NCBI GenBank assembly: GCA_016839605.1
Contig: JAEOTX010000150.1
Coordinates: forward strand, 1-60,506
DNA length: 60,506 bases
From: Candidatus Thorarchaeota archaeon
Lineage (GTDB): Archaea; Asgardarchaeota; Thorarchaeia; Thorarchaeales; Thorarchaeaceae
Reading direction: 5' to 3'
Each line of letters begins with the position of its first letter. Within the stretch, counting starts at the first letter, position 1. Shown here piece by piece: positions 8,488-60,506 of this stretch. A program made the translations under genes and the position numbers. The notes under the pieces are model-generated. The model searched no databases. It was not told where the DNA came from and was given only the letters and a program-made list of their open reading frames with translations.

Positions 8488-8632
8488 CTGACAGATTGTC
8501 GAGTCTTGTGCCGTCGCGCGAAGCTCCTAACTGATAAGGGTTCTTACATGACGGTTGCCTGTCGAACCTGTCATTTGCAAACGCCTATATGTAATGCAAA
8601 TTGGCTTCGACTCGTTGAAGAGAGAGATTGCA

Positions 8633-25880: not shown

Positions 25881-25903
25881 ATACAAGAAGTGGGTCTTCA
25901 TAG
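24146..25903 (+). CDS. tnpB: TnpB-like RNA-guided nuclease homolog (OrfB/IS605 family) with long Ser/Lys-rich C-terminal tail
   Basis: 585 aa. RuvC-I FAIDLGIKK, zinc ribbon CHKCGH..CHTCGY and RuvC-III NADLNGAINI are present. At the canonical RuvC-II hhhExL position the sequence reads CIGRVKGI. Confidence 0.9.
   Translation: MGRSSGLIVSVKIPIRWGMMTKRQRTRLNQITGRDSRIIKAYLGVIERNETDLLTSGKLNRVNVSKLDKLTLTASRGVAERHYVLHDFKKRFTNISVNEFQECRDTAVAMWQSYLEKGGSKPLKARGYTSRKIPRFVFKQRFEFIYTPDREIKHWLVIRDSLDSSRRSSRIHDKLAIPLSPSSYHLNKMNEGIVKTVRLFRDSTRKWWAIFTVTLRVESLHSLGKPSAVFAIDLGIKKTACTVLLTRSGYKHVRYWRQGKKIGHMKRYDKRVACLQREKEDLLKMNKDTHGVAKELRELNCKRNRISIEYDRKLVKDLCDHILEISEKFDLYVCIGRVKGIRNRARKGNHRGRAFRGMIHRWSFARVSEILKHKLETLGYNSRRFYSAPEAWTSIMCHKCGHKGMRPKQNLFICHTCGYRANADLNGAINIGRRHIMLIPSLRDEKKGLGMWLLPKEKATLKARRKKSSSKRKSSLSQRGPASVGESVADCYDQTSVVEFASSKDLAMVKAVETPSASSSSGNVESMQRTEAGSRKRNHVPVKSGKAHVILKYNGLSKAGDSSREKGGTQEFLDGLLTNTRSGSS
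25839..25880 (+). ncRNA. conserved 3' block, candidate omega-RNA scaffold end / right-end element of E1
   Basis: AGAAGGGTGGAACACAGGAGTTTCTTG..GGTTTACTCACCA is nearly identical (26/27 and 12/13) to 29246-29291 on the minus strand. There it lies downstream of the tnpB stop. It contains the hairpin GGAAC-ACAGGA-GTTTC. Confidence 0.4.
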
Positions 25904-37847: not shown

Positions 37848-38702
37848 ATGGCTGTACATCTAAAGTTGACCAAGGAACCGGATATTCCTCTAGAGGCAGA
37901 CACCATAACTCCCACTCATTTCGCTGGAAAGAGTGCAGCAGAGCTAGGAAAGCTGCCAGTTCTTCAAGGAAACCAAACCCTAGAGCTTGCAGCCTTCTTT
38001 GATATTTCGGGAGAAGCAGGTGCCACTCCAGATGAAACTGAGATAGTTGTGAGTGGTAATCTAAAGGATGTCAAGATGATTGGCAAGGGCATGAATGGTG
38101 GGAGAATCACCGTAGAAGGAGATGTTGGAATGTATCTAGGGGCCGAGATGATAGCAGGTCGGATACATGTCAAGGGTTCTGTGGGATCGTGGGCTGCTGC
38201 AGAGATGGAGGGAGGAAATATCCAGATAGAAGGAAACGCTGGAGACTACCTCTGTGCTGGCTATCGAGGCAGTCCTGATGGGATGAAAGGAGGCAGGGTC
38301 TATATCGCGGGCAATGCAGGACGCGAAATGGGAGCCCATATGCGGAAGGGCTTCATCGCTGTGAAGGGCGATGTGGATACCCTTGCAGGAGTCAGAATGA
38401 AGGGCGGAACAATCATAGTTGTAGGTAATATCGCAGACCGTCTTGGTGTGGAAGCCACAAAAGGCATGATATTCTGTCTGGGAAAGGTGGACTCGCTGCT
38501 ACCCACCTACAAATTCAGCGGGAGTTCTGAGAGAGAATTCACAAATTACTACTTGCGATACCTGAGGTCTCGGAGACCGGACTTCCTAAACGAAGACCTA
38601 GACTTTGCTGAAAAATGGGCGAAGTTTATGGGCGACTTTGCAGAAGGAGATCCGAAACAGGAGATCTATCTTCGCGAGGCAGCAAATCAACACTTGCTCT
38701 GA
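37848..38702 (+). CDS. fwdC: formylmethanofuran dehydrogenase subunit C-like (GXGXG beta-helix)
   Basis: Repeated G.I.V.G.VG...GA.M.GG units (GGRITVEGDVGMYLGAEMIAGRIHVKGSVGSWAAAEMEGGNIQIEGNAGDY...). Confidence 0.85.
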   Translation: MAVHLKLTKEPDIPLEADTITPTHFAGKSAAELGKLPVLQGNQTLELAAFFDISGEAGATPDETEIVVSGNLKDVKMIGKGMNGGRITVEGDVGMYLGAEMIAGRIHVKGSVGSWAAAEMEGGNIQIEGNAGDYLCAGYRGSPDGMKGGRVYIAGNAGREMGAHMRKGFIAVKGDVDTLAGVRMKGGTIIVVGNIADRLGVEATKGMIFCLGKVDSLLPTYKFSGSSEREFTNYYLRYLRSRRPDFLNEDLDFAEKWAKFMGDFAEGDPKQEIYLREAANQHLL

Positions 38703-38714
38703 GGAGAGAAGAGT

Positions 38715-39683
38715 ATGAATCCAAGCGTTAACGAAAAGGCATTCGAGATTGTCAAGGAGATGATGGACAAAAAGGACGAACTCAATTGCGCCGTAACCGA
38801 ACAGGGTAATGGAGCTACCCTGATTGATGCGGGTATTGAGGTGTCCGGGGGAATTGAAGCTGGAAGACTCGTCGGAGAGATTTGTCTCGGAGGTCTTGGA
38901 ACAGTTCGGATAACCCACCAGCACGTTGGAAACATGACGTTTCCTGCAGTGGTCGTCAGTACTGATCATCCAAAGATTGCGACAATGGGGTCTCAATTTG
39001 CGGGATGGGTCGTCAACATCAAGGAAGACGAGGGGAAGTACTTTGCAATGGGTTCAGGACCAGCTAGAGCCCTTGCGGTTGTTGAGAAAAAGCTCTACAA
39101 AGAGCTTGACTATAAGGACAAAGCCAAGGTTGGTGTGATTGTTCTTGAAACACGAACCCCACCGCCTGAGTTCGCGACCAATTTCATTGCTGAGAAATGT
39201 GGCATATCACCAGCGGATCTCTATTGTGTTATGACTCCAACCGCTTGCGTTGCTGGTTCGGTTCAGATCTCAGCTAGGGTTGTAGAGGTGGGTGTGCACA
39301 AACTACACGAACTTAAGTTTGACCCGGATAAGATTCGAGCCGGACATGGTGTCGCGCCTATAGGACCCGTAGCTAAGAACGATAACAAGGCGATGGGAGT
39401 CACCAATGACTGCATTCTCTATGCAGGACGCACCTTTTACTTCATCAGACCAGATGAGGAGGATGATCTTGCAGCTCTTGTGGAGAAAGCACCGTCATCA
39501 GCCTCAAGTCAATATGGTCAGCCTTTCTTCAAGCTATTCAAGAGCTTCGAGTTCGACTTCTATAAGGTCGATCCGCATCTCTTTAGTCCTGCAGAGATCA
39601 CAATCAATGACATTGTGAAAGGCAAGACCTACAAAGCTGGTGATGTGAACCCAGAGGTTTTGAAGCAGTCATTTGGAATGTAG
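38715..39683 (+). CDS. mch: methenyltetrahydromethanopterin cyclohydrolase
   Basis: 322 aa. VNEKA..IV..M......L.......NGATLIDAGIEV.GG.EAG and the overall length match Mch. Confidence 0.9.
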   Translation: MNPSVNEKAFEIVKEMMDKKDELNCAVTEQGNGATLIDAGIEVSGGIEAGRLVGEICLGGLGTVRITHQHVGNMTFPAVVVSTDHPKIATMGSQFAGWVVNIKEDEGKYFAMGSGPARALAVVEKKLYKELDYKDKAKVGVIVLETRTPPPEFATNFIAEKCGISPADLYCVMTPTACVAGSVQISARVVEVGVHKLHELKFDPDKIRAGHGVAPIGPVAKNDNKAMGVTNDCILYAGRTFYFIRPDEEDDLAALVEKAPSSASSQYGQPFFKLFKSFEFDFYKVDPHLFSPAEITINDIVKGKTYKAGDVNPEVLKQSFGM

Positions 39684-39749
39684 TAGCAGGTATGCATTTC
39701 GTGTGCAGATGCACATTCAACAGTAGATGTAGCGCTAGATGGAGAGGGT

Positions 39750-40514
39750 GTGCCATCTGAAGGATTTCTGGGGTCTTTAATAATCATCATCCACATAGAA
39801 GAATGTCCATATCAAGGAGTTCCGATAACTTTGCAGACTATTCTGGATCCAACAGTAATCTCTAGCTTGACAACTGCTTTTCTGTCGTTTTGTCTGTCCA
39901 CGTACTTGTATTATCTGTGGAGAAGACAAGCTAACAGACTCTATACTGACCTTCCATTGATGTTCAGTATAATCTTCGTCAGTTCAGCAGTGAGCCAGGT
40001 CCTTCAGGCGTTGCCTCTACTAGGCATAATCGGAGATTCTGTTGAGATGTTCCGCATACGTGCCTTTGTGGTATTGGTGATGGTAATTCCCATGGTGGTT
40101 GTGCTTCTTAGCATCCTAGCTCCAAGGTGGAAACGTCATCACACCAAGATCACCGCAGCATCTGCACTCTATTGGATTGCTGCTACGTTTCTTGGCACAA
40201 GCCGAGAACAAATCATGACAATGGTAATGCCCCTTCTGCTAGTATTAATGGTAGGCTGGCTGGTCATGTTCACCATAACTTGGAAGACCGGTCGATTGAA
40301 AGAAGTTCGAAGCGACCTCATGGTCTTTGCAACCATTCTTTCCCTCATAAGTCAGGGTGGAAAAATCGCTATGATGGCTATAGGGATAGGCTTTGTCGCG
40401 GACATAATCACGGCGATAAGCGTCATCACCTATACAGTTGCCATGGTGAACCCATGGTACAAACGAGAACAGGCAAGTGCCGATTCTGTTGAAGTAGCAG
40501 CGGCAGTTTACTGA
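39750..40514 (+). CDS. hypothetical polytopic membrane protein
   Basis: 254 aa with about seven hydrophobic segments. GTG start, uncertain. Confidence 0.5.
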   Translation: MPSEGFLGSLIIIIHIEECPYQGVPITLQTILDPTVISSLTTAFLSFCLSTYLYYLWRRQANRLYTDLPLMFSIIFVSSAVSQVLQALPLLGIIGDSVEMFRIRAFVVLVMVIPMVVVLLSILAPRWKRHHTKITAASALYWIAATFLGTSREQIMTMVMPLLLVLMVGWLVMFTITWKTGRLKEVRSDLMVFATILSLISQGGKIAMMAIGIGFVADIITAISVITYTVAMVNPWYKREQASADSVEVAAAVY

Positions 40515-40653
40515 CATCCAATGTTGAAGTAGAGGTTCCTTCAGTGACAAGGAATCTCTATCATCATTTTTCCAAGACTGGTTGTTTTTCGGTCTTTAAA
40601 TTCCAATGATATGACTCTCAACTGGTATCGATACAACTCTAGAGGTATCTCAA

Positions 40654-41589
40654 ATGACAATTACTGAAGTGGCTCAGGAACCTCAAAGCAAAGAACCGAT
40701 TTCTGAGCATCCTCTCTCGAAGATAGGGCTTTTGCCTTTGTCCGGACTCCTTTTCCTTGTGGCGGTTGTCTGGCGCATCGTAGACATCTTTGTCCTCGGA
40801 CTAGGGGACACATGGATAAACATCATGCCTTCCAAGCTCTTCCCGCTACTCATCATAGCAGGAGTGTTTTGGAAGTATAGGAAAGTCGAGTTAAGCTCCG
40901 TTTTGGGCCTAGCTAAGGGACCTTACTTTAGAACACAGATTGTGCTAGGGATAGGCATCTTTGCAGCATGGCATCTAATGTTGAACGTGTTTCCTAAGAT
41001 CATCTATGGGGCCATTGATCCAACATACACTGTGTCCTTCGCGGTCCTCAATGTGGAAATTCTATGGTATCTTTTCCTGTTCTTTCTTACAAATGGCTTC
41101 CTAGAGGAGGTCTTGTTTAGAGGACTCCTTCAGAATACCTTCAGACAAAGGACATCGACCTTTAGTGCGATATTCCTTTCCGGTCTGCTGTTTGGTGTAT
41201 GGCATGTTACTTGGCCATTAGTGAATGGGCTTGACACTGGATTCTCTGTGGGACAGGCAATCTCACTCGTGGTATTCTCAACAATTTTCGCACTATTCTA
41301 CGGTTACTACTATGAGAACTTCTCGAGTCGTCGCACTCTAGTTGGGACCATAACAGCACACACATTCATGAATTTCATCAATGAAAACTTCAAGGTAGGC
41401 TCAGATCCACTTGTTCAGGGTCCAGACTATTTCTACGGTTCACCAACCCTATTGGGTCTGACAATAGGGATGTTCCTCATCACCTTCATTGTGCTGACAT
41501 TCATGGCTTACAGATATCGCATCGAGGATGTACAGAATCACTGGCACAGGGTCACAAACTGGTGGACAGCCATAAGAACACGTGAATAG
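40654..41589 (+). CDS. CPBP-family intramembrane metalloprotease (CAAX protease/Abi)
   Basis: EEVLFRGLLQ, FGVWH and HTFMNF are the three CPBP motifs, in a multi-TM protein. Confidence 0.8.
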   Translation: MTITEVAQEPQSKEPISEHPLSKIGLLPLSGLLFLVAVVWRIVDIFVLGLGDTWINIMPSKLFPLLIIAGVFWKYRKVELSSVLGLAKGPYFRTQIVLGIGIFAAWHLMLNVFPKIIYGAIDPTYTVSFAVLNVEILWYLFLFFLTNGFLEEVLFRGLLQNTFRQRTSTFSAIFLSGLLFGVWHVTWPLVNGLDTGFSVGQAISLVVFSTIFALFYGYYYENFSSRRTLVGTITAHTFMNFINENFKVGSDPLVQGPDYFYGSPTLLGLTIGMFLITFIVLTFMAYRYRIEDVQNHWHRVTNWWTAIRTRE

Positions 41590-41624
41590 GGTCCGGTCTC
41601 CTCGGACCCCACACTTTCTCTGGT

Positions 41625-43151
41625 TCAGGTGACATCTAGCTCCTCAACCTCGCTGACTTCCACCTTACTCGCAGCATGGACCTCATCGGCTTTTATTATG
41701 GGATAGGTGAATGCCTTTCTAACTAAGAAGGCTCCAGTGAAAGTCACAATGGAGCAGATGGAAAAAGTGAGTGGAAAGCCATACTGAGGGGTCAACCATC
41801 CAAAGAGGGCAATAAGAGGAGCTGACGCTAACATGATGAGCGTTGGTTGTAATGAGTACATGCTGTTTCTTATCTTGCTCGGGATAACGTCTATCATCAC
41901 ACGTTGGGAGAGTATCTGGGCAAATCCTCCGAATGCGCTTGTGACTACGAATATAATGAATATGATGGCCGTGGGAATCAATGAATCAATGGGAAAGTCC
42001 AGAATAGGGATTACTGGGGAAAGAGGTGAAGCAGGAGGGAATATGGCCGCCACTACGACAAGAAGGACGTAGAAGAAGAAACCTCCAAATTGCAGAAATC
42101 TAAATCGGGGAATCCAGACTTTGGGTTCGAACCTTCTCGACCAGATTCCACTTCTCTCCTGAGAGAGGGCTTGAGGGAGGAAAATTACGGTCCTAAAGGA
42201 AGATACTGCCACATCTGACAGCAGAAATGTGAAGTACAGGGGGAAGAGCAACAGATTCCACCAGACTGGACCAGTGCTCCACATCACGACCTCGCCTAAG
42301 ATTATGAAGGTGACGAATTTGCTTGACCCAAGAAATCTGATGCCTTCCTTCAGAAGACCTCCATACTCCTGCAGGGATGGCCTGCCCTCCGATTCATCTC
42401 TTACACCTGGAAGGTCATGGACTAGTCTAAGCACAGCAAGAGCAAGGAGAAAGGCAAAGATAGCCTGAAGTTGAAACACCCATGGGCGACTAAAGACAAG
42501 TGCCAACCATGAACCAGGGATTAGTACCAGGGTGGAAGAAATCTGCCACACCATACCTACACGCCCCCAGAACACTCCATACTGCTTGCGGTCTTCATCA
42601 TGGGGCATGCATACTTTCCAGTTGTTGTCGAACCAGGCTTGAAATGCGCCACTCTCTTGTGCAGCTCCAACCCCCATGAGGACATAGATCGACATGAATA
42701 CTGGAAAAGGAGTCGTGGAATTCACCTGTGAAGTAATCCAGAATGCAACTGAGTAACAGAGAAGAGCGGAAGCAATCACATAACGCTGACCTATCCAATC
42801 GCCTATTGCTCCCGTGGGATAGTCTAGAATAGTCTGAGATAGAAGTGAAGTAATAACTAGGACGCCCACATAGGTGAGACCTGTGATGTAGTCACCGCCT
42901 CCAAGAGTTTCCGCGATGAATATCATGTAGAAGGTGGTAGAGATTTGGAATGAGAGAGCAAAAGATGGGAATAGGACTGCCAGAATCTTCACCAAGCGTG
43001 CGGCATTCTCGGTTGGCTCAGAAATCCCGAAGAGACGGGTGAAGCGGGTTGAGACCCTTTTCTCCTCTAAAGGCGCATCACAGTCCATAACAAGTTCGAG
43101 TCTTACGTTCCACATAAGAGGGTTGCTCGGCGCAAACGAGTTGGTGGTCAA
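41625..43151 (-). CDS. MFS-type transporter
   Basis: 508 aa with about 12-14 TM segments. The DYPTGAIGDWIGQR loop resembles the MFS D-R/K-x-G-R motif. Confidence 0.7.
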   Translation of the reverse strand: MTTNSFAPSNPLMWNVRLELVMDCDAPLEEKRVSTRFTRLFGISEPTENAARLVKILAVLFPSFALSFQISTTFYMIFIAETLGGGDYITGLTYVGVLVITSLLSQTILDYPTGAIGDWIGQRYVIASALLCYSVAFWITSQVNSTTPFPVFMSIYVLMGVGAAQESGAFQAWFDNNWKVCMPHDEDRKQYGVFWGRVGMVWQISSTLVLIPGSWLALVFSRPWVFQLQAIFAFLLALAVLRLVHDLPGVRDESEGRPSLQEYGGLLKEGIRFLGSSKFVTFIILGEVVMWSTGPVWWNLLLFPLYFTFLLSDVAVSSFRTVIFLPQALSQERSGIWSRRFEPKVWIPRFRFLQFGGFFFYVLLVVVAAIFPPASPLSPVIPILDFPIDSLIPTAIIFIIFVVTSAFGGFAQILSQRVMIDVIPSKIRNSMYSLQPTLIMLASAPLIALFGWLTPQYGFPLTFSICSIVTFTGAFLVRKAFTYPIIKADEVHAASKVEVSEVEELDVT

Positions 43152-43188
43152 TTCCGTGTCCTTTATCTGATGAAAGAAGTCTGAGGCT

Positions 43189-43476
43189 GTGATTGGAATG
43201 AGAGTCGAGATACGATTTCGAGGTCCTCTTGCAGCTAAGACAGGGATGCAGATGTTTCAAATGAACATAGAAGAGGGTGCCAATCTAGGAATGACTCTCA
43301 AGACTCTCATTGAGACCGAGGAAGCAGTTAAGAAGATTTGGACAGATCCCGAGAGAATGGACCGTGAGGCATTGATATTGCGAAATGGGACTGATATCGG
43401 TCTCACAGGTGGACTTGCCACCGTGCTAAAAGAAGCGGATAGAATTCTGGTCCTGCCTCTGGTACATGGCGGCTAG
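43189..43476 (+). CDS. MoaD/ThiS-family ubiquitin-like small modifier (SAMP-like)
   Basis: 95 aa with beta-grasp length and pattern, ending in VHGG (C-terminal di-glycine). Confidence 0.75.
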   Translation: MIGMRVEIRFRGPLAAKTGMQMFQMNIEEGANLGMTLKTLIETEEAVKKIWTDPERMDREALILRNGTDIGLTGGLATVLKEADRILVLPLVHGG

Positions 43477-44000
43477 GCAAACCCTGCTCCGGCTCTGACT
43501 GCATCAATATCAAGCTTCAACGCATTTGACTTAACGAGATCATGAAGTGCGTCCTCTAGTGCCTTGGCAGGAAAGACTCCCGACTTCTTCACTAGAGCAC
43601 CCAGCATGACCATGTTTGAAACAAGACGCAATCCCATGTCATCGGCTGTCTTCATGGCTGGAACATTGACTATCTCAAAGTCATGCTCAGCTTCTTTGGG
43701 ATTTACAAGGTCCGGGTCTATCAGCAATACCCCTCCTTTCTTGGCACCAGGAAGATACATCTCGAAAGCCTTCTGTGACATCAGGACACTATAATCTGCT
43801 TCACGGACCTTGGGGTATCGTATCTGCTCATCACTGATGATCACCTCGCTCTTGGCTGCGGTCCCTCTGGCTTCTGAACCATAGCTCTGTGTCTGAACAG
43901 ACTCAAGGCCGGCGTGCACAACAGCAGCATGCCCCAAGATTACTCCTGTAAGCACAACACCCATTCCACCAGTGCCAGCAATACGAAACTCTGTCCTCAT
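43473..44000 (-). CDS. 2-oxoacid:ferredoxin oxidoreductase, gamma subunit
   Basis: 175 aa. IAGTGGMGVVLTGVILG...SYGSEARGTAAKSEVIISD is typical of POR/KOR gamma. Confidence 0.85.
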   Translation of the reverse strand: MRTEFRIAGTGGMGVVLTGVILGHAAVVHAGLESVQTQSYGSEARGTAAKSEVIISDEQIRYPKVREADYSVLMSQKAFEMYLPGAKKGGVLLIDPDLVNPKEAEHDFEIVNVPAMKTADDMGLRLVSNMVMLGALVKKSGVFPAKALEDALHDLVKSNALKLDIDAVRAGAGFA

Positions 44001-44011
44001 AATACTTCAGC

Positions 44012-44833
44012 TCACGAGTCGACCATCTCTTTCAATGATTCCAAGAAAGAGGGTTCATTCCTATCCACAAAGACTCCGAGGTCTATAGAATCGTGTTTTG
44101 GCGTTCGATACTCCATCGGATCGTTCTTCTTCCGAACTGGCAGCTTCTTCATCCACTTTAGCATCTCGACAGGACCGCCTGCCTTGGTCCTTCGGCCATA
44201 TGCAGTCGGACATTGGCTAAGCATCTCCACAAATGTGAACCCCTTCCTCTCTAGAGCCGCCTTCATTGCTCTTGATGCTTGAAACGGATGTGCAGTAGTC
44301 CACCTGGCAACATAGTTTGCCCCCGCCGCTGCGACGAGTCTTGCAATATCGAACGGACGCTCTGGGTTGCCATATGGCGTTGTGCTTGTTCGGTCTCCAG
44401 TGAACGTCGTGGGTCCAACCTGTCCACCAGTCATTCCATATATCCAGTTGTTAGAGCAAATGACTGTGAGGTCCATATTGCGTCGGGCCGCATGGATGAG
44501 ATGGTTTCCTCCAATCGCAGCTAGGTCTCCGTCACCGCTTATCACAACGACCTCTTGCTCAGGTATAGCCAGCTTTAAACCTGTGGCAAAAGCAATTGCA
44601 CGGCCGTGAGTTGTATGTAGAGTGTCTGCACGGAAGTGTGGAGAAACTATCCAAGCGCCACAACCAATGCCTGAAACAAAGGCGAACTTACTAAGGTCCT
44701 CATGACCCAAGTCCTTCACTGCTTTAAGGAATGCTGAACCGGTTTCCATATTCCCGCAGCCTGGACAAAATGGGTGAGGAAGACACTCTTCACGTATGAA
44801 TTGTCTGGCGAAATGCTTTGAAGTGGCAGTCAT
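44012..44833 (-). CDS. 2-oxoacid:ferredoxin oxidoreductase, beta (TPP-binding) subunit
   Basis: CPGCG, GIGC, GDGD..AIGGNH and YGMTGGQ motifs. Confidence 0.9.
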   Translation of the reverse strand: MTATSKHFARQFIREECLPHPFCPGCGNMETGSAFLKAVKDLGHEDLSKFAFVSGIGCGAWIVSPHFRADTLHTTHGRAIAFATGLKLAIPEQEVVVISGDGDLAAIGGNHLIHAARRNMDLTVICSNNWIYGMTGGQVGPTTFTGDRTSTTPYGNPERPFDIARLVAAAGANYVARWTTAHPFQASRAMKAALERKGFTFVEMLSQCPTAYGRRTKAGGPVEMLKWMKKLPVRKKNDPMEYRTPKHDSIDLGVFVDRNEPSFLESLKEMVDS

Positions 44834-44978
44834 GGTATAGACCCACTTCGTCTTCGAGGTGAGAGACTAATAATCCATTCTCTAAGGGACCATTATGCAT
44901 TCCGTCAAAGCATCACGCTTAAAACGACATGGCAAGACGCCTTGTTTCGCAGAGATTACACTCTAAGGTGATATTAGA

Positions 44979-45407
44979 ATGTCAGATGTCGTAGCGATGC
45001 GTGTCTTTAATCGCGAGCTTGCCTCAGTTATTGGCGCGACAATAGAAGTTGTCATCAATACTGGTGACACATATGTTGGTACTCTGAGAGGCATTGATCA
45101 GACTAGTCTGAGCATAGTTCTCTCAGATGTTGAATCCAAGAAGGGGCCTATACCCAGAATCTTCCTCTATGGTAGCAGCATTGTTTCATTCTCAGTTGCA
45201 GAGAGAGAAGTAAGTCTAGAGGGTCTCGTGAAGGAGCTTGAAAAAGCATTCCCACCTGGCGGTGTGCAGTATTTTGCTGAACAGCCGCTTATCTTGGTCA
45301 TGAACAAGATAAGAATCACACCAGAAGGCGTCGATGGAACTGGCCCACTCTATGAGCGTGTGGCACAGATTGCTGATGAATGGTTCAAAGAACATGGACT
45401 AGACTGA
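44979..45407 (+). CDS. Sm-like (LSm) fold protein with C-terminal extension (tentative)
   Basis: IEVVINTGDTYVGTLRGIDQTSLSIVLSDV...RIFLYGSSIVSF follows the Sm1/Sm2 pattern, except that the usual Asn is missing. Confidence 0.45.
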   Translation: MSDVVAMRVFNRELASVIGATIEVVINTGDTYVGTLRGIDQTSLSIVLSDVESKKGPIPRIFLYGSSIVSFSVAEREVSLEGLVKELEKAFPPGGVQYFAEQPLILVMNKIRITPEGVDGTGPLYERVAQIADEWFKEHGLD

Positions 45408-45504
45408 TTTACAATATGCAAAAACAAGACATACTGAAGACTTAATCAGTCCATACTAGTCCAAATTAGGTTCTCTGCTGCGACTCTGGACTATTCGATA
45501 GTCT

Positions 45505-46773
45505 TCATAGAATTCTTCGGAGACCGAGTTCTTTCGGTTCCTTCTGCTTCTCTTCACGAGGCTTGCGCTGCATTAACTTTCTCTCTAACGGCTTTAGACG
45601 GTCTTCCCATGATGGTCGGTCCGTAATGGATGGAGCCTTCCCAAAGCTCCGCGCTTTTCCAGAGGCAGACTTTGAAGCAGTGGCGCTTACGTGCGATGCT
45701 AGAATACCAAGTTCAGAGAGTCGGGCTCTGCCTACCAGTTTTGATGCTGTGGACTCATCTTTTGAGCGAGGCAGCAATTGAGGACTCTTTACCCCTGTGA
45801 GTATCAACATCACTCGTAGCACCCCACTCAGGCGTGGATCGACTCTTGCACCCCAAATCACGTTTGCATCTGTGCTCATCTTTTCTGAAACCAATTCGCC
45901 TACCTTGTTTGACTCAGCCAGTGACATGTCAGGACCACCTGTGATGTGTATCAAGGCTCCTGTAGCACCACTCCACTCTACCTCAAGTAGGGGACTATTC
46001 AAAGCGTTTCGAATTGCATTATTTGCCCTGTCAGACCCGGTAGCCTCACCAAGGCCAACAAGTGCAACACCGCCGTTACAGATTATTGTGCGCACATCCG
46101 CATAGTCCAAATTGATCAAACTGGGCATCGTGATAGTTTCGGTGATTCCTTTCACCATGTTTGCAAGGACTTCATCTGCAACTCCAAATGCTTCCTCAAG
46201 TGGTAAATCTGGCACTAGCTCCATGAGTTTCTGATTGTCAATGACCACTGCAGTATCAACGTTCTCCTGAAGACGTGCTAGACCAGCTGTTGCTTTATCA
46301 ATGCGGGTCCTTTCTAGGCTGAATGGCATTGTAATGACTCCGACAACAATGGCATCATTCTTCTTAGCAATTTCAGCGACTACCGGTGCACTTCCGGTCC
46401 CGGTGCCTCCGCCCATCCCTGCAGCAATGAATACAAGGTCGGCATCACGAAGAAGCTCTGTGAGCTGATGGGTGGACTCCTCTGCTGCTGCTTGACCAAC
46501 ATGTGGATATCCCCCTGCACCAAGACCACGTGTTATTCGCTCCCCAATCAGGAGCTTCCTATGAGCCGTGGTCACAGCTAGGTGCTGTCGATCCGTATTG
46601 ATAGCAACACACTCAGCACCTTGTACACCAATTGTCATCAGCCGCTTCACTGTGTTGTTGCCTGCACCGCCGCAACCGATGACCACAATCCTCGCCTGAC
46701 CCATGTCACGCGGAGTAATTCCAACCCTCTCTGTGCGACTGTGTTCTCTTGCTGAATCAATCAGTGATTTCAT
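45505..46773 (-). CDS. ftsZ: cell division GTPase FtsZ with extended C-terminal tail
   Basis: [10 protein letters not shown] and [19 protein letters not shown] (tubulin signature), plus NLDYADV. Confidence 0.95.
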
Positions 46774-54022: not shown

Positions 54023-54817
54023 TTAGAGTTTACCCCCACAATGCGGACAGAAGCTGATTCCTTCGTCAATCTTTGCCTGACAGAACGGACAAACATGCTT
54101 TCCAGCTGGAACAGTCTGAGTTTCCCGAATGACTTGAATAGATACATCAACAGTCTTTGTGGTTCGAAGAGAATATTCATTATCAAAAACAACTAGTAAC
54201 TGTTCTTTCCTTGGGCTCTGATATGTCACATCAATCTCGCCGACCTTCTCCCTGGTGAAATATGCTTTGTCAGTGTGAATGCTGTCGGGGGTTTCATATA
54301 TCTTGGCTAAGATGTGCACGGTTATGTCATTACCCTTGGTCACACGACCAAAGATCCTGATTGTATCGTCCTTATTCACATCCACATCAATAGTTTCAAG
54401 GTATCCTGCATCTACCTCAAAACTCTCCCTGAGAGGCTCATCTCCGACCTCAAGCGGAGGGAACGCTACTTGAACGTGGACATCAATTGACTTGTACTTG
54501 GAGCGAGCATGGTAGTTATCGAAGACCAGGTAGACAACATCCCTCATCTCAACGACAACTGACTCATCCACATTACTCACCTTCTCTTCTGACCAGAGTG
54601 CATTGTCAGGGTCAGGGTCAAATTCCGTGACTAGGCCCACCAAGGGGGCCTTTTTCACATAGGCTGAAGGAAATAATGCGACATTGAAATCATCTCCGTC
54701 AACCTCCTTCGCCTTGATGTGAATAGCAGTCAGTTCTCTGCAATGTATTTCCACATATTCAAACTGACCTGCTTCAATTTCGATGTTCTTCTTGAATTCT
54801 CCACCTCGTAACCTCAT
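54023..54817 (-). CDS. hypothetical protein with internal duplication and C-terminal zinc ribbon
   Basis: 264 aa. Two similar halves (VVYLVFDNYHARSKYKSIDVHVQV and LLVVFDNEYSLRTTKTVDVSIQV), ending in CPFCQAKIDEGISFCPHCGGKL. Confidence 0.55.
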   Translation of the reverse strand: MRLRGGEFKKNIEIEAGQFEYVEIHCRELTAIHIKAKEVDGDDFNVALFPSAYVKKAPLVGLVTEFDPDPDNALWSEEKVSNVDESVVVEMRDVVYLVFDNYHARSKYKSIDVHVQVAFPPLEVGDEPLRESFEVDAGYLETIDVDVNKDDTIRIFGRVTKGNDITVHILAKIYETPDSIHTDKAYFTREKVGEIDVTYQSPRKEQLLVVFDNEYSLRTTKTVDVSIQVIRETQTVPAGKHVCPFCQAKIDEGISFCPHCGGKL

Positions 54818-54936: not shown

Positions 54937-56802
54937 GTGCTTCGCGTGAGGGCGGCAAGACTTGTTGCTTTTGGATTGGTTCTAGGATTAATTTTGCTAG
55001 CATTTCCAGAATCCCAGCTCGATATATTTGAGAAAAATCTGAGTCCGGATATGAAACACAACAATATTCTCGCAGACTATGTGGTCCATGATCCAATCCT
55101 GATAGCATCAGATGCTGACTTTGAAGCACAAGGTTGGCCCGGGAATGGAACAGAAAACGATCCATACCTCATAGAAGGATTCACGATTAACGGAAGCCAG
55201 ACTCCCTCAGAGATTTGTTTGATGGTCGAAAATACAAGATCGTATTTCTCCGTGACAAACTGTTATCTTTTCAATGGCCAATTTGGAATCCAATTTGACA
55301 ACGTTTCCAATGCTAGAATTGAGAATAATGAGATACATGAGGTTGGTGATGATGGCATTGTAATAACAGGTTCTGATTTCAATGCAATTCAAAACAACAC
55401 ACTAGTGGGAAGTGTCTTGCACAGCAGTAATCATGCTTTAATCCTGTACAACTGCGATAACACCACGATAGCAAACAATACCTGTTTTGGATACTGGCAC
55501 TTTGGGATATCGCTTTCATCAGGTTGCTCTAATGACTCAATATCCAATAACTTATTTTCTAGCAACACAGGGACTAGCTACGGCATATGGCTATGGGACT
55601 CAAGCCAAAACACAATCTTCAACAATACCTGCATCAGTAACACCTATGGGATATGGATTTTTTCTTCGTCCCCTGATCCGCTCTATCATTGCTACGGGAA
55701 TATTCTCCTCAATAATAGCTGTGATGAAAATGGTTATGGTATATGGATAGAACGATGCTCATCACTCACTATTGTAAACAACACTGCTTCTAATAATGAT
55801 TACAACGGTATCAACAACGTTGATTGCGTTGATTCTATCCTTATTGACAACGAGTGCCTTTACAATGTTCAACGGGGTATTGTTTTAGGCGATTCAACAG
55901 AGAACTGCACCTTGTACAATAACAGGTTAGGATGGAACGGACCAGAGAACGGACTCGACCACGGAATAAACAATTCATGGGATGATGGAGTGAGTATAGG
56001 GAATAAATGGGGTGATTATGTAGGAAGTCCACCTACCTACACTATTCCCGGCGATGCGGGGTCAGTCGACCATTATCCTCTGAAGGCAGACACAAGAGTG
56101 CCCACAATTGATTCACCTTCTGACATAGAAATTGAGTTCGGTTCTTCAGGGGCTATAACTTGGAACCCAGTTGACCCTCATTACGAATCATACACTGTCC
56201 TCAGAAACGGGAACCCAATCGATACTGACATCTGGTATGGATCAAGTGTCACTGTGCCAATCGGTGGACTGGCACTAGGAGTCTACAATTACACCCTCAT
56301 TGTGTCCGACACATGCGCGAACTCAAACTCCGATTCAGTCTTGGCGACTGTTGAAGACACCACTGCGCCAACAATTAATGACCTCGGCTACATTGGTTAT
56401 ACTGAGGGTGAAAAAGGCCATTTCGCATCGTGGAATCCATCTGACCCCCTTCCTCAGTCCTTCGAGCTCTTGCAGAATGGATCCTTAATGCTAGCTGATG
56501 ATTGGGATGGCTCTGAGATAACGTACAATGTTGATGGACTTCCTCCCGGAGTCCACAACTTCACGTTGATTGTCTATGACACGTCAGGCAACTGGAACTC
56601 AGACTCTGTGCTTGTGACGGTCTGGGCGTTGGCTACAACTCCAACCAAAACGACAACAAGTGTGACTGCAACGCTAACTAGCCCGACTGGACCCCCGACT
56701 GATCCAACAGGGATAACTATCATTTTGGTAGTGGTAGGTATTGCTGCAGTCACATCTATTATCATCACATTGGTTGTACTACGGATTAGGAAATCGGGAT
56801 AG
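54937..56802 (+). CDS. secreted right-handed beta-helix (PbH1/NosD-like) repeat protein with Thr-rich stalk and C-terminal TM anchor
   Basis: GTG start with a signal-like RAARLVAFGLVLGLILLAFP. There are many N.I..N....N..GI.L repeats, then a TTPTKTTTSVTATLTSPTGPPTDPTG linker, a hydrophobic helix and RIRKSG. Confidence 0.8.
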   Translation: MLRVRAARLVAFGLVLGLILLAFPESQLDIFEKNLSPDMKHNNILADYVVHDPILIASDADFEAQGWPGNGTENDPYLIEGFTINGSQTPSEICLMVENTRSYFSVTNCYLFNGQFGIQFDNVSNARIENNEIHEVGDDGIVITGSDFNAIQNNTLVGSVLHSSNHALILYNCDNTTIANNTCFGYWHFGISLSSGCSNDSISNNLFSSNTGTSYGIWLWDSSQNTIFNNTCISNTYGIWIFSSSPDPLYHCYGNILLNNSCDENGYGIWIERCSSLTIVNNTASNNDYNGINNVDCVDSILIDNECLYNVQRGIVLGDSTENCTLYNNRLGWNGPENGLDHGINNSWDDGVSIGNKWGDYVGSPPTYTIPGDAGSVDHYPLKADTRVPTIDSPSDIEIEFGSSGAITWNPVDPHYESYTVLRNGNPIDTDIWYGSSVTVPIGGLALGVYNYTLIVSDTCANSNSDSVLATVEDTTAPTINDLGYIGYTEGEKGHFASWNPSDPLPQSFELLQNGSLMLADDWDGSEITYNVDGLPPGVHNFTLIVYDTSGNWNSDSVLVTVWALATTPTKTTTSVTATLTSPTGPPTDPTGITIILVVVGIAAVTSIIITLVVLRIRKSG

Positions 56803-56826: not shown

Positions 56827-57612
56827 TCAATCATCTGCTTCATCTGGTGGCCACTCGATAATGCCGTATGGCTGGTCGAAATAGGGTGCAATCTGTTTGA
56901 ACCTCTTGCCACGTCCTCTATTAAATTTGAAAAATGTGACATAGCAGCACGCATCTGCCAATTGAACTCCTGGACTCAATTCAGAAGGAGTAAAGAAGCA
57001 TGTTTCCACTATGTTAAGATAGTGCGTTTGTTGGAAATGTAGATTCTCTCTTGTTTTAGGAGTGCGTATCCCACCATCTTCCATCACCTGATAGGTCCAA
57101 AGCTGCTTCAATTTGTCTCTTGTCTTATGCTCACTGTCCATAATCATCAAACCAATATCGTCGATTCTTCCAAGGTACTTGTCAAATCGATTTATGAGAT
57201 AAAGCGGGCCCAGAATCGGGGCTACTAGTGCACGAGTCCTTGTCTTTCCGGACCTAGTTATGTACATATAGCGCTCGAAGTGTTCTTTCTTATGAATGAC
57301 AGCAGCAAAGAGTGTTGGCTTGATTTCTTCGATGATTTTGAAGATGCCGTCTGTGAGACGCTTCCTCTCTCGATTCGTAAGCTGGCCATATGCCCCCTTA
57401 CCTGCAACTATGTCAACGTGATGGAACTCAGTCGGCTTTTCATCATAGCTCTCGAAAGCACGTGATAGAAGTCCGGTGAGAGTGACAGAAGCTCCAAGCC
57501 ATGCCTTTGCATCCATTGAGAGCCCTACAGTAACATGAATGTTAGTTTCGCTTTTGCCGTAGGGGTCAGGCCATCCTTCGTTGCCGGAGGAATCAACAAA
57601 CATTATCTTCAT
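56827..57612 (-). CDS. DUF3800-like protein
   Basis: 261 aa. N-terminal IMFVDSSGNEG (DESG-like) and C-terminal SPGVQLADACCY (QLAD-like) are the two motifs I associate with DUF3800. Confidence 0.6.
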   Translation of the reverse strand: MKIMFVDSSGNEGWPDPYGKSETNIHVTVGLSMDAKAWLGASVTLTGLLSRAFESYDEKPTEFHHVDIVAGKGAYGQLTNRERKRLTDGIFKIIEEIKPTLFAAVIHKKEHFERYMYITRSGKTRTRALVAPILGPLYLINRFDKYLGRIDDIGLMIMDSEHKTRDKLKQLWTYQVMEDGGIRTPKTRENLHFQQTHYLNIVETCFFTPSELSPGVQLADACCYVTFFKFNRGRGKRFKQIAPYFDQPYGIIEWPPDEADD

Positions 57613-57864
57613 GATTATTACTCAAATGATGTTCATATACAAGGGTTGTTACTCTCGGAAATCCCTTCTAGCATTGAAATTCCTCATCTTGGAGGTAACT
57701 CGGTTTCAACAAGCGCCCTTGTTATCTCATTTCAGTCCTCTACTATCACATAGAGCAACGTCTAACAAGCATGCCGATTACCACCTCGGAGAGTTGGTAG
57801 AAGGGCAGTGTCCCACAGCCATCGGATGGTCAGGGTGCTGTTCACACATCAGTTATCAGTTTGG

Positions 57865-60273
57865 TCATGAAATCATAGTTTGCTCAATTGAGAGACACCG
57901 ACTCAGAATATAGTCTAACGCACTGAAGTCTGCAAGATTCTCTGTGAACATCTCGAGAGCCGCGTTATCCAAAGCATGTTGTAGCAATCTTCCTGCTGCC
58001 TCAAATTTGAGCCGTACTCTTTTCCTAGCCAAATCACAGCTATTAATGAGCACCATTCTCCATGAGTCGGAGATCTCTACGTTCCATAGTCCAGAGGATT
58101 GGCTTCTGCAGGTGATGCCCATCATCTCAAGTGTTCTAAGTTGCCTTCGAATACCCCTATCAGATAACCCGGTTTTAGAGCCGAGAGCTCCAATCGCTAC
58201 AGGATTTCTTGATTGAAGAATCACCCCGAGCACTTCATTTTCCAAAGCCAGGAGCATGGATTTGAAGAGTTTCAAGTTCATTCTTGGACTCAAAGACGGA
58301 ATTTCCGTATGCTTGAAGGAAATTAATGCTTCAACCAAGAAAAGAAGGTTCATCATGCCTTCTCTCAAATCAATATCTCCTCTCCAACCGGCAGAATACG
58401 AGTTTTGTCGAATCTCAAGATTCTCAGAACACAGATTTAGGAGCCATTCCAAGTCGTTGTGATGAATCTCGACAATCTTCCGACCTTCCGAGGTCATAGG
58501 ACCTCCCTGGATGATTGAAACAACGAAACTGCCCCATGAGAGAACTTCTTTCCCATGCTCGGTCAACCTATAGACTGCTGCAGCTCTCTGTGGCTTTCTT
58601 ACTCTCCTTACATAACCTCGACTGCCTAGCTCACCCAGAATTCTTGACAGCCAACTACTGCTAAGAGATGTTGCCTCGCATAATTCCTGGGTATTCATTT
58701 CAGATTTAAATTCCAGACTAGCTAGGACTTCAAGAGATCCCCTTGAAGACAGCGCTTTGCACCGTGCTTTTAATTCGTAGATTAAAGAACTAAATGATGC
58801 TTCGGCCTCTTTATTCCCACGACTCTCATACCTGTTCCTAATAGTCTGTGCCATGTCGGGTGAAATACCTGCATATTCTAAGATGGCGCAATCACTGGTT
58901 GGATGATGACTAATGGTTCGTTTCAAAAACGCATTGAGCGCATCCATAACATACTGAGGTGCAGTTTCACTTAACCGTCCCAGATATTGACGAGCGTTTC
59001 GTTCAAAGAACTCCAAGTATCTTTCATTGTTTGCCATCAAGTTTCGCGCAGAAAATTCGGAAGTGCATCGAATCATAGCCTCATCTGGTTCTGGTACTGC
59101 TACTAGAGCTGGCAGTCTGATAGAGTCCCACGGTTCCATGCCATGAATTGGTTGACGATGTACCAAGGGACTTACCGTTTCAAGCTCTCCCATATTCTCA
59201 ACCCTGACAAAAGCTCCTCCGGTTGGAAGTGAAATCAAACCTTCACGACTCCATACATAGTCTAGGCAGAGTGCTTCACCTACGACTTTCTTAGCTTGTG
59301 GATCTATAAGTTTCCCAACAACCCACATGTTGCAGCTTCCAAGTACGTGACTACTGATTTGGTGAGGCATCTGGTCAACTATCATGAATCCAATTCCCAA
59401 TTTCCGTCCTTCGATGAGAGCTCTCTCCAAGTGTGACCTCTCACCTTTTCTATCTGCTCTACGAATCTCACTGATGAAGTTGTGAGCCTCCTCAAGGACG
59501 ACTAACACATTATTCGTTGGCGCTATATTGTGAGTGCGTTGCCAAGCACGATAAGCAAAAAGCTTGGCCACAGTAATACTAACCAGCAGTTCATGTGCAC
59601 GAGTAATACCTGTTGATGGAAGTTGAACAACCAATAGTCCCTTTTCGAAATCAGTCGGCTGAAAACCTCCTCTTTCCTTAACACAGCGACCGACTTCTGA
59701 GTCCAAGAGGCTCTCAAGTCGGTTCTGAACACTCACATGACTACTGACTTCTGATGACCTTTGCCGAGGTCTATAATCCCGTGCCTCATCCAGAAGCTCA
59801 TCCAAGGTTGGAGGTTTATCTTGACTGGATGGTGAGTCTAGGGTCAGACTATTTGCAGCCTTCTGAAGAATAGCTATGGATGGATCTTTGAGACCGTAGT
59901 TCTGCGCAAATACTTGAATGAAAGTTGGAAACCATTCATCTAGCCGCATGCCGGGTGGAGGTTCGAGTGGGTTCTGTATGAACTCTCTGTAGTCTATGAC
60001 GACTATGTCTTTTCTTACCGCAAGGAGCTTCTCATAATCCCTCGAATTGTCAAATACGATACCTCCATAGTCTGACTCCAAAGCAGCTATCACAATCTTC
60101 ATGGCTTTCTGAGTCTTGCCTGAGCCAATTGAACCTGCCACCAATACTCCCTTAGTGAGCTCATCGGGATGACGCCGAATATACTCATAGAGGTCTATGT
60201 GCCGTCCTCGATTACGAATCACACTGGCTATGTTCTGTGAAATATCGCTTTGGTCATCAGGCAAGTCTTGCAT
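57865..60273 (-). CDS. HerA/FtsK-superfamily (DUF87-like) P-loop ATPase fused to two C-terminal winged-helix domains
   Basis: 802 aa. Walker A VAGSIGSGKT and Walker B NVLVVLEEAH, with RKLGIGFMIVDQMP downstream. C-terminal wHTH 1 is NTQELCEATSLSSSWLSRILGELGSRGYVRRV..YRLTEHG. wHTH 2 is IGALGSKTGLSDRGIRRQLRTLEMMGI. Confidence 0.8.
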   Translation of the reverse strand: MQDLPDDQSDISQNIASVIRNRGRHIDLYEYIRRHPDELTKGVLVAGSIGSGKTQKAMKIVIAALESDYGGIVFDNSRDYEKLLAVRKDIVVIDYREFIQNPLEPPPGMRLDEWFPTFIQVFAQNYGLKDPSIAILQKAANSLTLDSPSSQDKPPTLDELLDEARDYRPRQRSSEVSSHVSVQNRLESLLDSEVGRCVKERGGFQPTDFEKGLLVVQLPSTGITRAHELLVSITVAKLFAYRAWQRTHNIAPTNNVLVVLEEAHNFISEIRRADRKGERSHLERALIEGRKLGIGFMIVDQMPHQISSHVLGSCNMWVVGKLIDPQAKKVVGEALCLDYVWSREGLISLPTGGAFVRVENMGELETVSPLVHRQPIHGMEPWDSIRLPALVAVPEPDEAMIRCTSEFSARNLMANNERYLEFFERNARQYLGRLSETAPQYVMDALNAFLKRTISHHPTSDCAILEYAGISPDMAQTIRNRYESRGNKEAEASFSSLIYELKARCKALSSRGSLEVLASLEFKSEMNTQELCEATSLSSSWLSRILGELGSRGYVRRVRKPQRAAAVYRLTEHGKEVLSWGSFVVSIIQGGPMTSEGRKIVEIHHNDLEWLLNLCSENLEIRQNSYSAGWRGDIDLREGMMNLLFLVEALISFKHTEIPSLSPRMNLKLFKSMLLALENEVLGVILQSRNPVAIGALGSKTGLSDRGIRRQLRTLEMMGITCRSQSSGLWNVEISDSWRMVLINSCDLARKRVRLKFEAAGRLLQHALDNAALEMFTENLADFSALDYILSRCLSIEQTMIS

Positions 60274-60322: not shown

Positions 60323-60506
60323 GGACATTTTGTAGCAACTATGAAGTGATTTGCTGGACATTTGTCAGCAATCTTAGCAGAAAATTCTGACATGTGATAG
60401 CAAAACGAACTGGTCAAGCGGACATGAGAACGCAAAAGGACCATGACTAAGGGACAGGAGGACGCAAGGGGCGCGAATTAGAGGGACAGCTGAGTGCAAT
60501 CAGAAA
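60323..60506. repeat. phased array of six GGACA-N7-GCAA sites with a 32-bp period (truncated by the window end)
   Basis: Units start at 60323, 60356, 60388, 60420, 60452 and 60484: GGACATTTTGTAGCAA, GGACATTTGTCAGCAA, TGACATGTGATAGCAA, GGACATGAGAACGCAA, GGACAGGAGGACGCAA, GGACAGCTGAGTGCAA. The intervening 16-17 nt are unrelated, and no ORF covers the region. Confidence 0.75.

Follow-up and report, generated by a model that had tools for sequence, protein, structure and literature searches.

A 60,506-nt forward-strand stretch of contig JAEOTX010000150.1 from Candidatus Thorarchaeota (hereafter the window, whose position 1 is its first letter) encodes a HerA/FtsK-like ATPase with a DUF3800 protein directly downstream, and this locus raises the question of whether the two genes work together. 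An earlier inspection, which we call the sequence-only reading, had taken them for a two-gene module that could be a defence system or a partition/replication module of an integrated element. The comparison of related loci leads us to a different answer, namely that the pairing is a lineage-restricted juxtaposition in a variable region and not a conserved two-gene system. We give roughly even chances to a reading in which the conserved element is a ring-ATPase that docks on a DNA array of its own, beside an independent DUF3800 cassette. The argument starts from what can be observed directly in the DNA and its relatives: the open reading frames (ORFs), their domains and folds, the array with its statistics, and the pattern of presence and absence among contexts. 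The genes in question are the following.

57865..60273, minus strand: ATPase ORF, 802 aa, with two winged helix-turn-helix (wHTH) domains (from the ORF list).
57613..57864, minus strand: 252-nt spacer between the ATPase and DUF3800 genes, part of the DUF3800 indel (missing from the related loci L093 and L001).
56827..57612, minus strand: DUF3800 ORF, 261 aa, with an RNase H2-like predicted fold (PF12686, structural model, Foldseek).
54937..56802, plus strand: convergent gene whose product is a NosD/beta-helix surface protein, anchored to the membrane at its C-terminus (Pfam NosD 98 bits, Beta_helix 88 bits).

Genomic association of the ATPase and DUF3800 genes

The ATPase and DUF3800 genes are co-directional with 252 nt between them, exactly as the sequence-only reading had placed them, and the surface-protein gene that it had seen next to the locus is the NosD/beta-helix gene listed above. 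Eight distinct contexts show what lies downstream of the ATPase, and DUF3800 follows it in two of them, the window and L092, which represent one sublineage; L092 has 85% DNA identity to the window, and the order ATPase-DUF3800-NosD is common to both. The ATPases of L093 and L001 are equally close (84-86%), and in these two loci homology to the window ends within a few bases of the ATPase stop codon. After this stop codon, L093 has a NosD-like gene only, with nothing in the DUF3800 slot, and L001 carries in the slot of the window's DUF3800 and NosD genes a type IIG restriction-modification (RM) gene encoding 1091 aa (L001:4279-7554, minus strand; Eco57I, N6_Mtase, TaqI_C, DUF7814). Homology between L001 and L093 resumes at a downstream GatB/GatE-type amidotransferase gene with 92% identity, and hence the two represent the same locus in two strains. 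In the four distant contexts, whose ATPases are 42-50% identical, there is again no DUF3800 gene, and the ATPase is accompanied by an Ogg-like gene, small ORFs, a NosD-like gene or a secreted protein.

The survey from the DUF3800 side gave the same picture. It covered the closest relatives and seven further genome loci, 11 contexts altogether with flanks of at most 5-6 kb and several shorter contigs, and none of the 11 contained an ATPase-like gene, even at E<=1. DUF3800 relatives stand alone between housekeeping genes, for example leuA/leuB. A Nitrososphaerales-type relative (L094:5407-8237, minus strand) lies ~3 kb from a DUF499 + DUF1156 pair (ATPase and methyltransferase-like), a combination known from defence islands, and ~790 nt without a called gene follow the DUF3800 gene there. 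In L009, a Thorarchaeota DUF3800 paralog adjoins a TPR-repeat protein, an echo of the published TPR-DUF3800 association (PMC10910872, PMC13594972).

Because DUF3800 follows the ATPase in only two of eight contexts, the break at the ATPase stop codon is clean, and the 11 reverse contexts hold no ATPase, we regard the two as independent genes. Of the neighbourhood conservation that the sequence-only reading had proposed to survey, one relative (L092) does co-locate the genes, but the pairing was not found in L093, L001, the four distant contexts or the reverse survey, and the module itself is thus not upheld. The accessory character that had been attributed to the module holds for the DUF3800 gene, which occupies a present/absent slot that alternates with an RM gene or with nothing; to judge from these alignments, the gene together with its leader is an indel cassette.

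These data bear directly on the idea of a two-gene system newly assembled in the window's sublineage, in which foreign DNA would be sensed or translocated by the HerA-type ATPase and then degraded by DUF3800 as nuclease effector. Such a system would be consistent with the co-directional arrangement, 252 nt apart and kept in L092, with the pairing of HerA-type ATPases with nuclease or NADase effectors (SIR2-HerA and DUF4297-HerA structures are among our fold matches), with the predicted nuclease fold of DUF3800 and its published defence links (PMC12669027), and with the RM gene that occupies the DUF3800 slot in a sister strain. It is nevertheless improbable, as the equally close L093 and L001 break cleanly at the stop codon, neither the four distant ATPases nor the 11 DUF3800 contexts show the pairing, the ATPase persists without DUF3800 just as DUF3800 relatives persist alone, and the window's DUF3800 gene probably has a promoter of its own, as described below. 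In practice, neither annotation nor experiments should treat the DUF3800 gene as this ATPase's effector.

A six-unit array upstream of the ATPase

The sequence-only reading had also pointed to a phased DNA array upstream of the ATPase, and this is borne out by both autocorrelation and motif counts.

60323..60499, minus strand: six direct bipartite repeats TTGC-N7-TGTC(C/A), 32-33 nt apart, 177 nt in all.
60484-60499, 60452-60467, 60420-60435, 60388-60403, 60356-60371 and 60323-60338, minus strand: the six units.

The autocorrelation at lag 32 is 0.48 against a null of 0.26 (z = 7.2), and six units are present where 0.09 are expected; in mononucleotide shuffles of the intergenic region, searched with a regular expression allowing N6-10 spacing, none of 2000 reached six. 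The TGTCC cores lie at -215 to -54 from the ATPase ATG. Across the window, 17 matches with at most one mismatch occur, six of them inside the array and those in the remaining window at chance level, and the motif is therefore local and not dispersed. The related loci L091 and L001 reach further upstream, and there the next two phased positions mismatch, indicating that the array consists of exactly six units and lies wholly within the window. An RNA repeat of the ToxI type or a CRISPR-like array was ruled out, given that the units share only nine core positions per 32 nt; the spacers are mutually unrelated, and Tandem Repeats Finder reports nothing.

Placement and period of the array recur, with other repeat sequences, upstream of ATPases that are only 42-56% identical to the one in the window. 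In L013 (56% identical ATPase) there are six or seven TTGCA-N7-TGCCGGTTG units with a period of ~32 nt (z = 5.1), and L012, L006, L004 and L002 have TGACC, TAGCC, TGTCC or TGCC cores in steps of 31-32 nt within the same -220 to -50 interval. Relatives likewise have a short TYCGCGCS box close to the distal units, and a TATA-like element that lies one period 5' of unit 1. We also observed a 14-15-nt element, (T/C)CTAGAGGTATTATG, that is nearly identical at L013:2331-2345 and L004:9696-9710, one period upstream of the first unit; the ATPases of these host loci are only 43-56% identical to that of the window, weaker versions are present in L012, L006, L002, L091 and L001, and the element could be a promoter. 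Together with the clean downstream break, the alignments identify as the conserved block a segment of ~2.8 kb that comprises the array and the ATPase gene and is flanked left and right by exchangeable DNA.

Domains, fold and distribution of the ATPase

The ATPase comprises the following parts.

59089..60165, minus strand: P-loop ATPase core of the HerA/FtsK superfamily, residues ~37-395, without the N-terminal HAS barrel (Foldseek, PDB profile, PADLOC, structural model).
60112..60135, minus strand: Walker A GSIGSGKT, residues 47-54 (G47, S48 and G50-K53 invariant in 16 homologs).
59482..59508, minus strand: Walker B VLVVLEEAH, residues 256-264 (V259, E261, E262, A263 and H264 invariant in 16 homologs).
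58564..58794, minus strand: winged helix 1, MarR/ArsR-like, residues ~494-570 (Pfam MarR, MarR structures, model topology).
58072..58275, minus strand: winged helix 2, residues ~667-734 (HTH_11, MarR/TFE structures, model topology).

The 802-aa ORF thus carries the Walker A and Walker B motifs at exactly the places given for them earlier, and both are nearly invariant across the 16 homologs. The description of its core as DUF87/HerA-like is accurate at the level of fold and incomplete at the level of sequence. Foldseek returned Sulfolobus HerA 4d2i as top match for the core (E 2e-8, ~310-370 aligned columns), followed by further HerA structures (8xav, 8wld, 8ziq), antiphage ones included, VirB4 and TrwB, but the Pfam DUF87/HerA match is below threshold (18.4 vs 23.2 bits) and HerA profiles align only to residues ~228-355, the Walker B-to-sensor segment (239-335 for the PDB HerA profile). 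The NCBIfam HerA_antiphage model scored 50.6 bits against a cutoff of 800 and TrwB_AAD_bind 13.2 bits against 20.5, the likeness to the TrwB and VirB4 folds being generic. The PADLOC mad8 model aligned to residues 42-358 (E 5e-11) and the PADLOC HerA model also matched the core, though across the defence and profile libraries no known defence system was matched at full length or at a curated cutoff. In the model, two or three helices (residues 7-41) precede the first core strand and Walker A, leaving no HAS barrel, and HerA-sized homologs align from their own residue ~90-110 whereas the window ATPase aligns from residue 37. No transmembrane segment was detected (maximum 19-residue hydropathy 1.22); Pfam gave no match to FtsK_SpoIIIE (PF01580) or the gamma-domain wHTH (PF09397) at E<=1, and neither Pfam nor NCBIfam matched the protein to Orc1/Cdc6, Rep or ParA families. 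The absence of a barrel, the missed cutoffs, and the lack of a membrane segment and of FtsK_SpoIIIE or gamma matches together place this ATPase in the HerA/FtsK superfamily without making it a HerA, FtsK or type IV secretion system (T4SS) ATPase in the strict sense; profile searches assigned it to no well-characterised conjugation or partition family.

The two MarR/ArsR-like winged helices that had been read in the ~400 C-terminal residues are supported by profile and structure matches as well as by model topology, less strongly for the second. The first (residues ~494-589) matches Pfam MarR at 26.1 bits (cutoff 24.6) and MarR structures down to E 8.5e-7. The second matches HTH_11 at 22 bits, below the cutoff, the MarR structure 3bdd at E 0.0024 and TFE at E 0.0037. 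Both adopt the canonical H-S-H-H-S-S topology in the AlphaFold model of the ATPase (pLDDT 76, pTM 0.65). The C-terminal half is otherwise variable, and the putative recognition helices of both domains stand out as conserved islands: among the 16 homologs, the SxSW(L/I)(S/N)R segment of the first domain is conserved, and in the second R709 is invariant and R706 and R710 are nearly so.

About 20 full-length homologs of 40-91% identity share this ~800-aa architecture, after which the next matches fall to E 5e-14. All homologs with an organism name on record are from Thorarchaeota, and the family is apparently small and restricted to this group. An exhaustive search of 1.84 billion representatives found only 10 relatives at E<=1e-30, a genome scan yielded three loci, and a metagenome scan yielded one 53-residue fragment and no new context. 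The closest outgroup proteins are DUF87 ATPases of ~400-500 aa that lack the barrel, among them P0042 with a single C-terminal HTH, whose locus was not found in the genome contigs; our literature search turned up no published description of the ATPase-wHTH architecture. One metagenome-assembled genome (MAG), CAYHAA01, has two ATPase paralogs, of which one (L012:7712-9981) has TGA at the conserved Ser132, TAG at the conserved Trp341 and a frameshift near residue 578. Recoding of the in-frame stops was ruled out, since they replace conserved Ser and Trp residues and a frameshift follows, and this copy is a pseudogene. An intact protein from another sample, P0020, is near-identical to the product of the pseudogene.

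The divergent upstream gene

The variable DNA on the other side of the array also holds a candidate partner. In six of the seven loci with a visible upstream side, a divergently transcribed gene lies beyond the array, and in the seventh (L002) a TnpB gene takes its place; the corresponding gene of the window ATPase lies beyond position 60506, outside the window. The divergent genes belong to two unrelated families, A and B, for which distant homology was ruled out (hhalign probability 0.3%). Family A proteins (L091:127-1380, L006:8600-9655 and L013:726-2255, all minus strand) have a Ser/Thr-rich tail and 2-3 tandem HTH repeats of the sigma-70-region-4 type, followed by one or two modules with the signature CxxC...HxKD...CxxCHxxxH, which is invariant in the family. 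By motif pattern, these Cys/His modules resemble HNH/His-Me fingers; no Pfam or PDB profile recognised them. Profile searches named no domain in family B, and a LAGLIDADG-like identity was rejected, having no profile or PDB support. Both families occur with close as well as distant ATPases. L091 (family A) and L001 (family B) share array and ATPase, and their upstream genes agree over the first 10 codons and then diverge fully. The divergent gene is a more plausible functional partner of the ATPase than DUF3800.

This arrangement would fit a defence or conflict system with swappable effectors, in which the ATPase-wHTH protein is the constant motor or sensor and the family A or B gene the exchangeable effector. 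The recurrence of either family in six of seven loci speaks for such a system, as do the cassette-exchange appearance of the shared first codons and promoter region, the invariant Cys/His signature of family A, hypervariable flanks that carry RM, DUF3800 and fast-evolving surface-protein genes, and the matches of the PADLOC HerA and mad8 models to the core. We consider it unlikely all the same: profiles back neither a nuclease domain for family A nor a domain of any kind for family B, the defence libraries gave no match at full length or curated cutoff, TnpB replaces the partner in one locus, the window's own partner gene falls outside it, and defence systems rarely have a conserved six-site array at their own promoter.

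Proposed docking of the ATPase on its array

How might the array and the ATPase work as a unit? Relatives of this ATPase form hexamers. The six in-phase units, the two conserved winged-helix recognition helices and these hexameric relatives lead us to propose a hexamer on the array; hexamer formation, the array reader, both promoters and all biological roles in the scheme that follows are inferred. The ATPase would be a soluble ring-type P-loop hexamer with two winged helices per subunit, and each subunit would read one bipartite repeat by placing each of its winged helices on one half-site, TTGC or TGTCC, which are one helical turn apart. Since 32 bp correspond to about three helical turns, all six repeats would lie on one face of the DNA. 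These repeats could thereby nucleate or dock the hexamer just upstream of the ATPase's own promoter, and docking may link ATP turnover to the handling of nearby DNA and to regulation of the divergent promoters. DUF3800 with its 252-nt leader would be a stand-alone nuclease cassette in the hypervariable flank, probably with its own promoter. It is more likely that the wHTHs of the ATPase, and not the upstream protein, read the array, because L091 and L001 have the same array although their upstream proteins are unrelated. Invariant catalytic motifs and a fold of the ring-ATPase type (HerA, VirB4, TrwB) are further points in favour of this proposal.

Several observations weigh against it. Only eight distinct ATPase contexts are available and all are MAG contigs; the ATPase-DUF3800 pairing is kept in L092, and the two genes may be a young lineage-specific system. 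The periodicity in L006, L004 and L002 is under the shuffle threshold, and that in L012 is only marginally over it, at lag 63. Among the three close relatives, variable positions make up 13% of the cores vs 21% of the spacers, a difference in the expected direction that is not significant (P = 0.22). Given the TATA-like element before unit 1, the array may be transcribed instead of serving as a binding site in the DNA, the ATPase model is poor over the conserved segment 317-394, and one ATPase copy being a pseudogene means that the function of the ATPase is dispensable.

The same array and winged helices could also belong to an ordinary ATP-dependent transcription factor that acts on an operator array to control its own and neighbouring genes, such as the NosD-like gene, with no translocation of DNA. 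By analogy, it may be likened to the bacterial enhancer-binding ATPases that use upstream sites, and it would account for the position of the array immediately upstream of the putative ATPase promoter, for wHTHs of the MarR/ArsR type that are typical of regulators, and for the NosD-like gene beside the ATPase in four of eight contexts, one of them distant, with the NosD-like gene 70 nt downstream on the same strand as the ATPase. We think this very unlikely, because plain repressors do not usually have a fully conserved HerA/FtsK-type core related to ring translocases, the orientation of the NosD gene is not conserved, and that gene is missing from half of the contexts.

Chromosomal setting

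The window contains ribosomal L3/L4/L2 genes, FtsZ, H+-PPase, Trm1, a PFL-like enzyme, an RNA methyltransferase and an archease-like ORF (called by eye from its N-terminal sequence), and with the ribosomal L3/L4/L2 operon and FtsZ present it is chromosomal DNA. We found in the window no integrase or other sign of an integrated element near the ATPase and DUF3800 genes, no compositional break around the locus and no T4SS genes, and the integrated-element setting suggested earlier is thus not supported. Elsewhere, ATPase homologs lie near SMC-ScpAB, near Cdc6 and the PolD small subunit, or beside TnpB, positions that are inconsistent between lineages.

These data can be set against the possibility that the locus serves the replication or partition of an element that is or once was mobile, the repeats being iterons or a centromere-like site and the ATPase-wHTH protein an initiator, helicase or segregation motor in the manner of Orc1-ORB, Rep-iteron or TraB-clt. 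Phased direct repeats do adjoin an ATPase-wHTH gene, the conserved block has discrete ends and variable flanks, two paralogous copies occur in one genome with one of them decayed, and the genomic position differs by lineage. We attach little credence to it, given the chromosomal window with no integrase, element genes or compositional shift, the lack of homology to Orc1/Cdc6, Rep or ParA, and a motif that is not dispersed in the window, in an array that is not AT-rich. A viral or plasmid origin of the ATPase was likewise rejected, as searches of the viral fold library, of viral contigs and of plasmids yielded no close relatives, and what they did return was remote, generic similarity to the core.

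Other features of the window are recorded here as observations in their own right. Two TnpB/Cas12f-like genes (Cas12f1-like_TNB domain; 24146-25903, plus strand, and 29357-31036, minus strand) lie ~3.5 kb apart. A giant ORF of 1789 aa (31281-36650, plus strand) has no Pfam match at E<=1e-5. Tandem paralogs at 8555-10519 and 10590-12482 (both plus strand) encode acetyl-CoA hydrolase/transferase domains fused to a C-terminal GNAT acetyltransferase. A 264-aa protein (54023-54817, minus strand) has a borderline emp24/GOLD-domain match (26.4 vs a cutoff of 25.9 bits) and a C-terminal zinc ribbon, and may represent a eukaryote-like trafficking domain in an Asgard genome; Sec23/24-like and Roadblock/LAMTOR-like genes are close to the ATPase homolog in L004. 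The cumulative GC skew (window ~38000-46000) reaches its maximum near 42-44 kb, declines steadily from there as far as the end of the window, and mostly tracks gene orientation.

The DUF3800 cassette

The assignment of the downstream protein to DUF3800, made earlier from its FVDSSG and QLAD motifs, stands firmly: PF12686 matches at 41.8 bits against a cutoff of 21 over profile positions 2-148 of 149, with FVDSSG at residue 5 and QLAD at residues 217-220. Among 10 relatives, E62, D159, Q217 and D220 are invariant and D7 is nearly so; the residue after the conserved D7 is S here and A, E or S among relatives, the canonical motif being D-E. The structural model (pLDDT 81, pTM 0.84) matched Thermococcus RNase HII (E 1e-4), human RNase H2A and RNase HIII in Foldseek, within a range of E 1e-4-4e-3 and TM ~0.4, and an RNase H2-like nuclease fold is accordingly predicted. 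The published work cited here offers fold prediction and defence links, in line with the earlier remark that no established function was known for DUF3800. An RNase H-fold nuclease has been predicted, with ties to retrons and class 2 CRISPR loci (PMC7736814, PMC10910872, PMC12669027), and the family has been linked to retron type VII and to Cas12a2, Cas12a3 and Cas13 loci (PMC7736814, PMC10910872, PMC12669027, PMC13594972). Csx32, the newest CRISPR-associated DUF3800 protein, is described as no kinase substrate and its function was left unstudied (bioRxiv 10.64898/2026.08.25.746378), and in the DUF3800 papers cited here nuclease activity is shown for no family member.

The leader of the gene suggests that DUF3800 is expressed on its own, and one further feature belongs here.

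57633-57642, minus strand: TATA-like box TTGTATATGA, ~25 nt 5' of the DUF3800 ATG.

The last ~85 nt of the spacer are ~98% identical to L092 (three substitutions) vs roughly 85% in the remaining spacer. As the TATA-like box lies ~25 nt before the ATG within this most conserved part, the sequence suggests an own promoter and a near-leaderless transcript. Eleven RNA motifs, classes DUF3800-I to -XI, have been associated with the family (PMC5737381), and a structured RNA partner of this kind (cf. Weinberg 2017) was considered and rejected, as Rfam gave nothing for the window (E up to 10) and nothing for five relative loci (E up to 1), though an RNA of a new class may yet be present. The spacer folds like its shuffles on both strands (z = 0.13 and 0.22), and the flanks of the relatives compared have no shared element. 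Near the window's DUF3800 gene there is no reverse transcriptase, Cas gene, TPR fusion or kinase. The window protein most likely acts alone as a predicted nuclease of the conflict or defence type, a role suggested by the fact that its flank slot holds a type IIG RM gene or nothing in sister strains.

The surface-protein gene

NosD orthologs stand beside the ATPase in four of the eight contexts (the window, L092:2870-5485, L093:1927-3471 and L006:12351-15128) and share only 28-43% identity. Between the window and L092, the NosD proteins are 41% identical while the flanking ATPase and DUF3800 are 85-91% identical, and the central part of the gene has no DNA homology to L092. The gene evolves very fast, and this pattern suggests diversifying selection or cassette exchange in a cell-surface protein.

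Relation to known systems and implications

The closest comparison is with HerA and its systems (HerA-NurA, SIR2-HerA, DUF4297-HerA), which provide the best fold and profile matches to the FtsK/HerA-type P-loop core. Unlike these, the window ATPase lacks the HAS barrel, matches HerA over ~100 residues at the sequence level, and has ~400 extra C-terminal residues that bear two wHTHs; nor does it have a NurA, SIR2 or DUF4297 neighbour, its surroundings being DUF3800 and NosD in the window and HTH or unannotated upstream genes in relatives. FtsK gamma-KOPS, SpoIIIE-SRS and Streptomyces TraB-clt each combine a ring ATPase with a C-terminal winged helix that reads a short DNA motif, and TraB recognises clustered short repeats near its own gene. 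The window ATPase resembles them by analogy in its domain logic, a ring ATPase followed by wHTHs, and has a candidate cognate array near the gene, but differs in having no FtsK_SpoIIIE or Ftsk_gamma match, no membrane anchor, two MarR-type wHTHs instead of one gamma domain and no conjugation genes nearby. KOPS are dispersed, whereas the window motif is restricted to a single array close to the promoter. The phased repeats next to the ATPase gene recall Orc1-ORB and Rep-iteron modules as an analogy only, with no protein homology. The mad8 model (MADS, PADLOC PDLC04140) is the only library model that spans the whole ATPase core and also matches the barrel-less ~400-aa outgroups; its profile of 314 positions has no wHTH extension. 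MADS is an 8-gene operon (bioRxiv 10.1101/2023.03.30.534895), and none of its other seven genes, nor any methyltransferase, adjoins the window ATPase. DUF3800 accessory nucleases (retron type VII, Cas12a2/Cas12a3 TPR-DUF3800, Csx32 of Cas13-associated kinase loci) share PF12686, QxxD and the RNase H2-like predicted fold with the window protein, which differs from them in standing alone and in having an N-terminal D-S-S-G, not D-E.

Asgard archaea are the closest known relatives of eukaryotes, and the locus places in them a compact unit made up of a predicted ring-ATPase with two putative DNA-reading domains and a six-site array. Targeting of a motor through a built-in winged helix has been described for FtsK and TraB and, to our knowledge, not for archaeal HerA-like proteins; if the correspondence of six sites to six subunits is true, built-in winged helices would target a motor of the HerA/FtsK type to one locus. 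The window's DUF3800 gene adds an archaeal stand-alone example to its family, in a slot that alternates with an RM gene. Tentatively, and with more doubt than belief, we envisage that the locus represents an undescribed Asgard-specific system in which a barrel-less HerA-like hexamer sits on six in-phase bipartite sites, one for each subunit, cooperates with exchangeable upstream partners and serves as a DNA motor of a new, sequence-loaded kind or as a defence sensor whose effectors can be swapped. Were this true, the variable flanks with their RM, DUF3800 and surface-protein genes would mark a conflict hotspot anchored by the array-ATPase unit.

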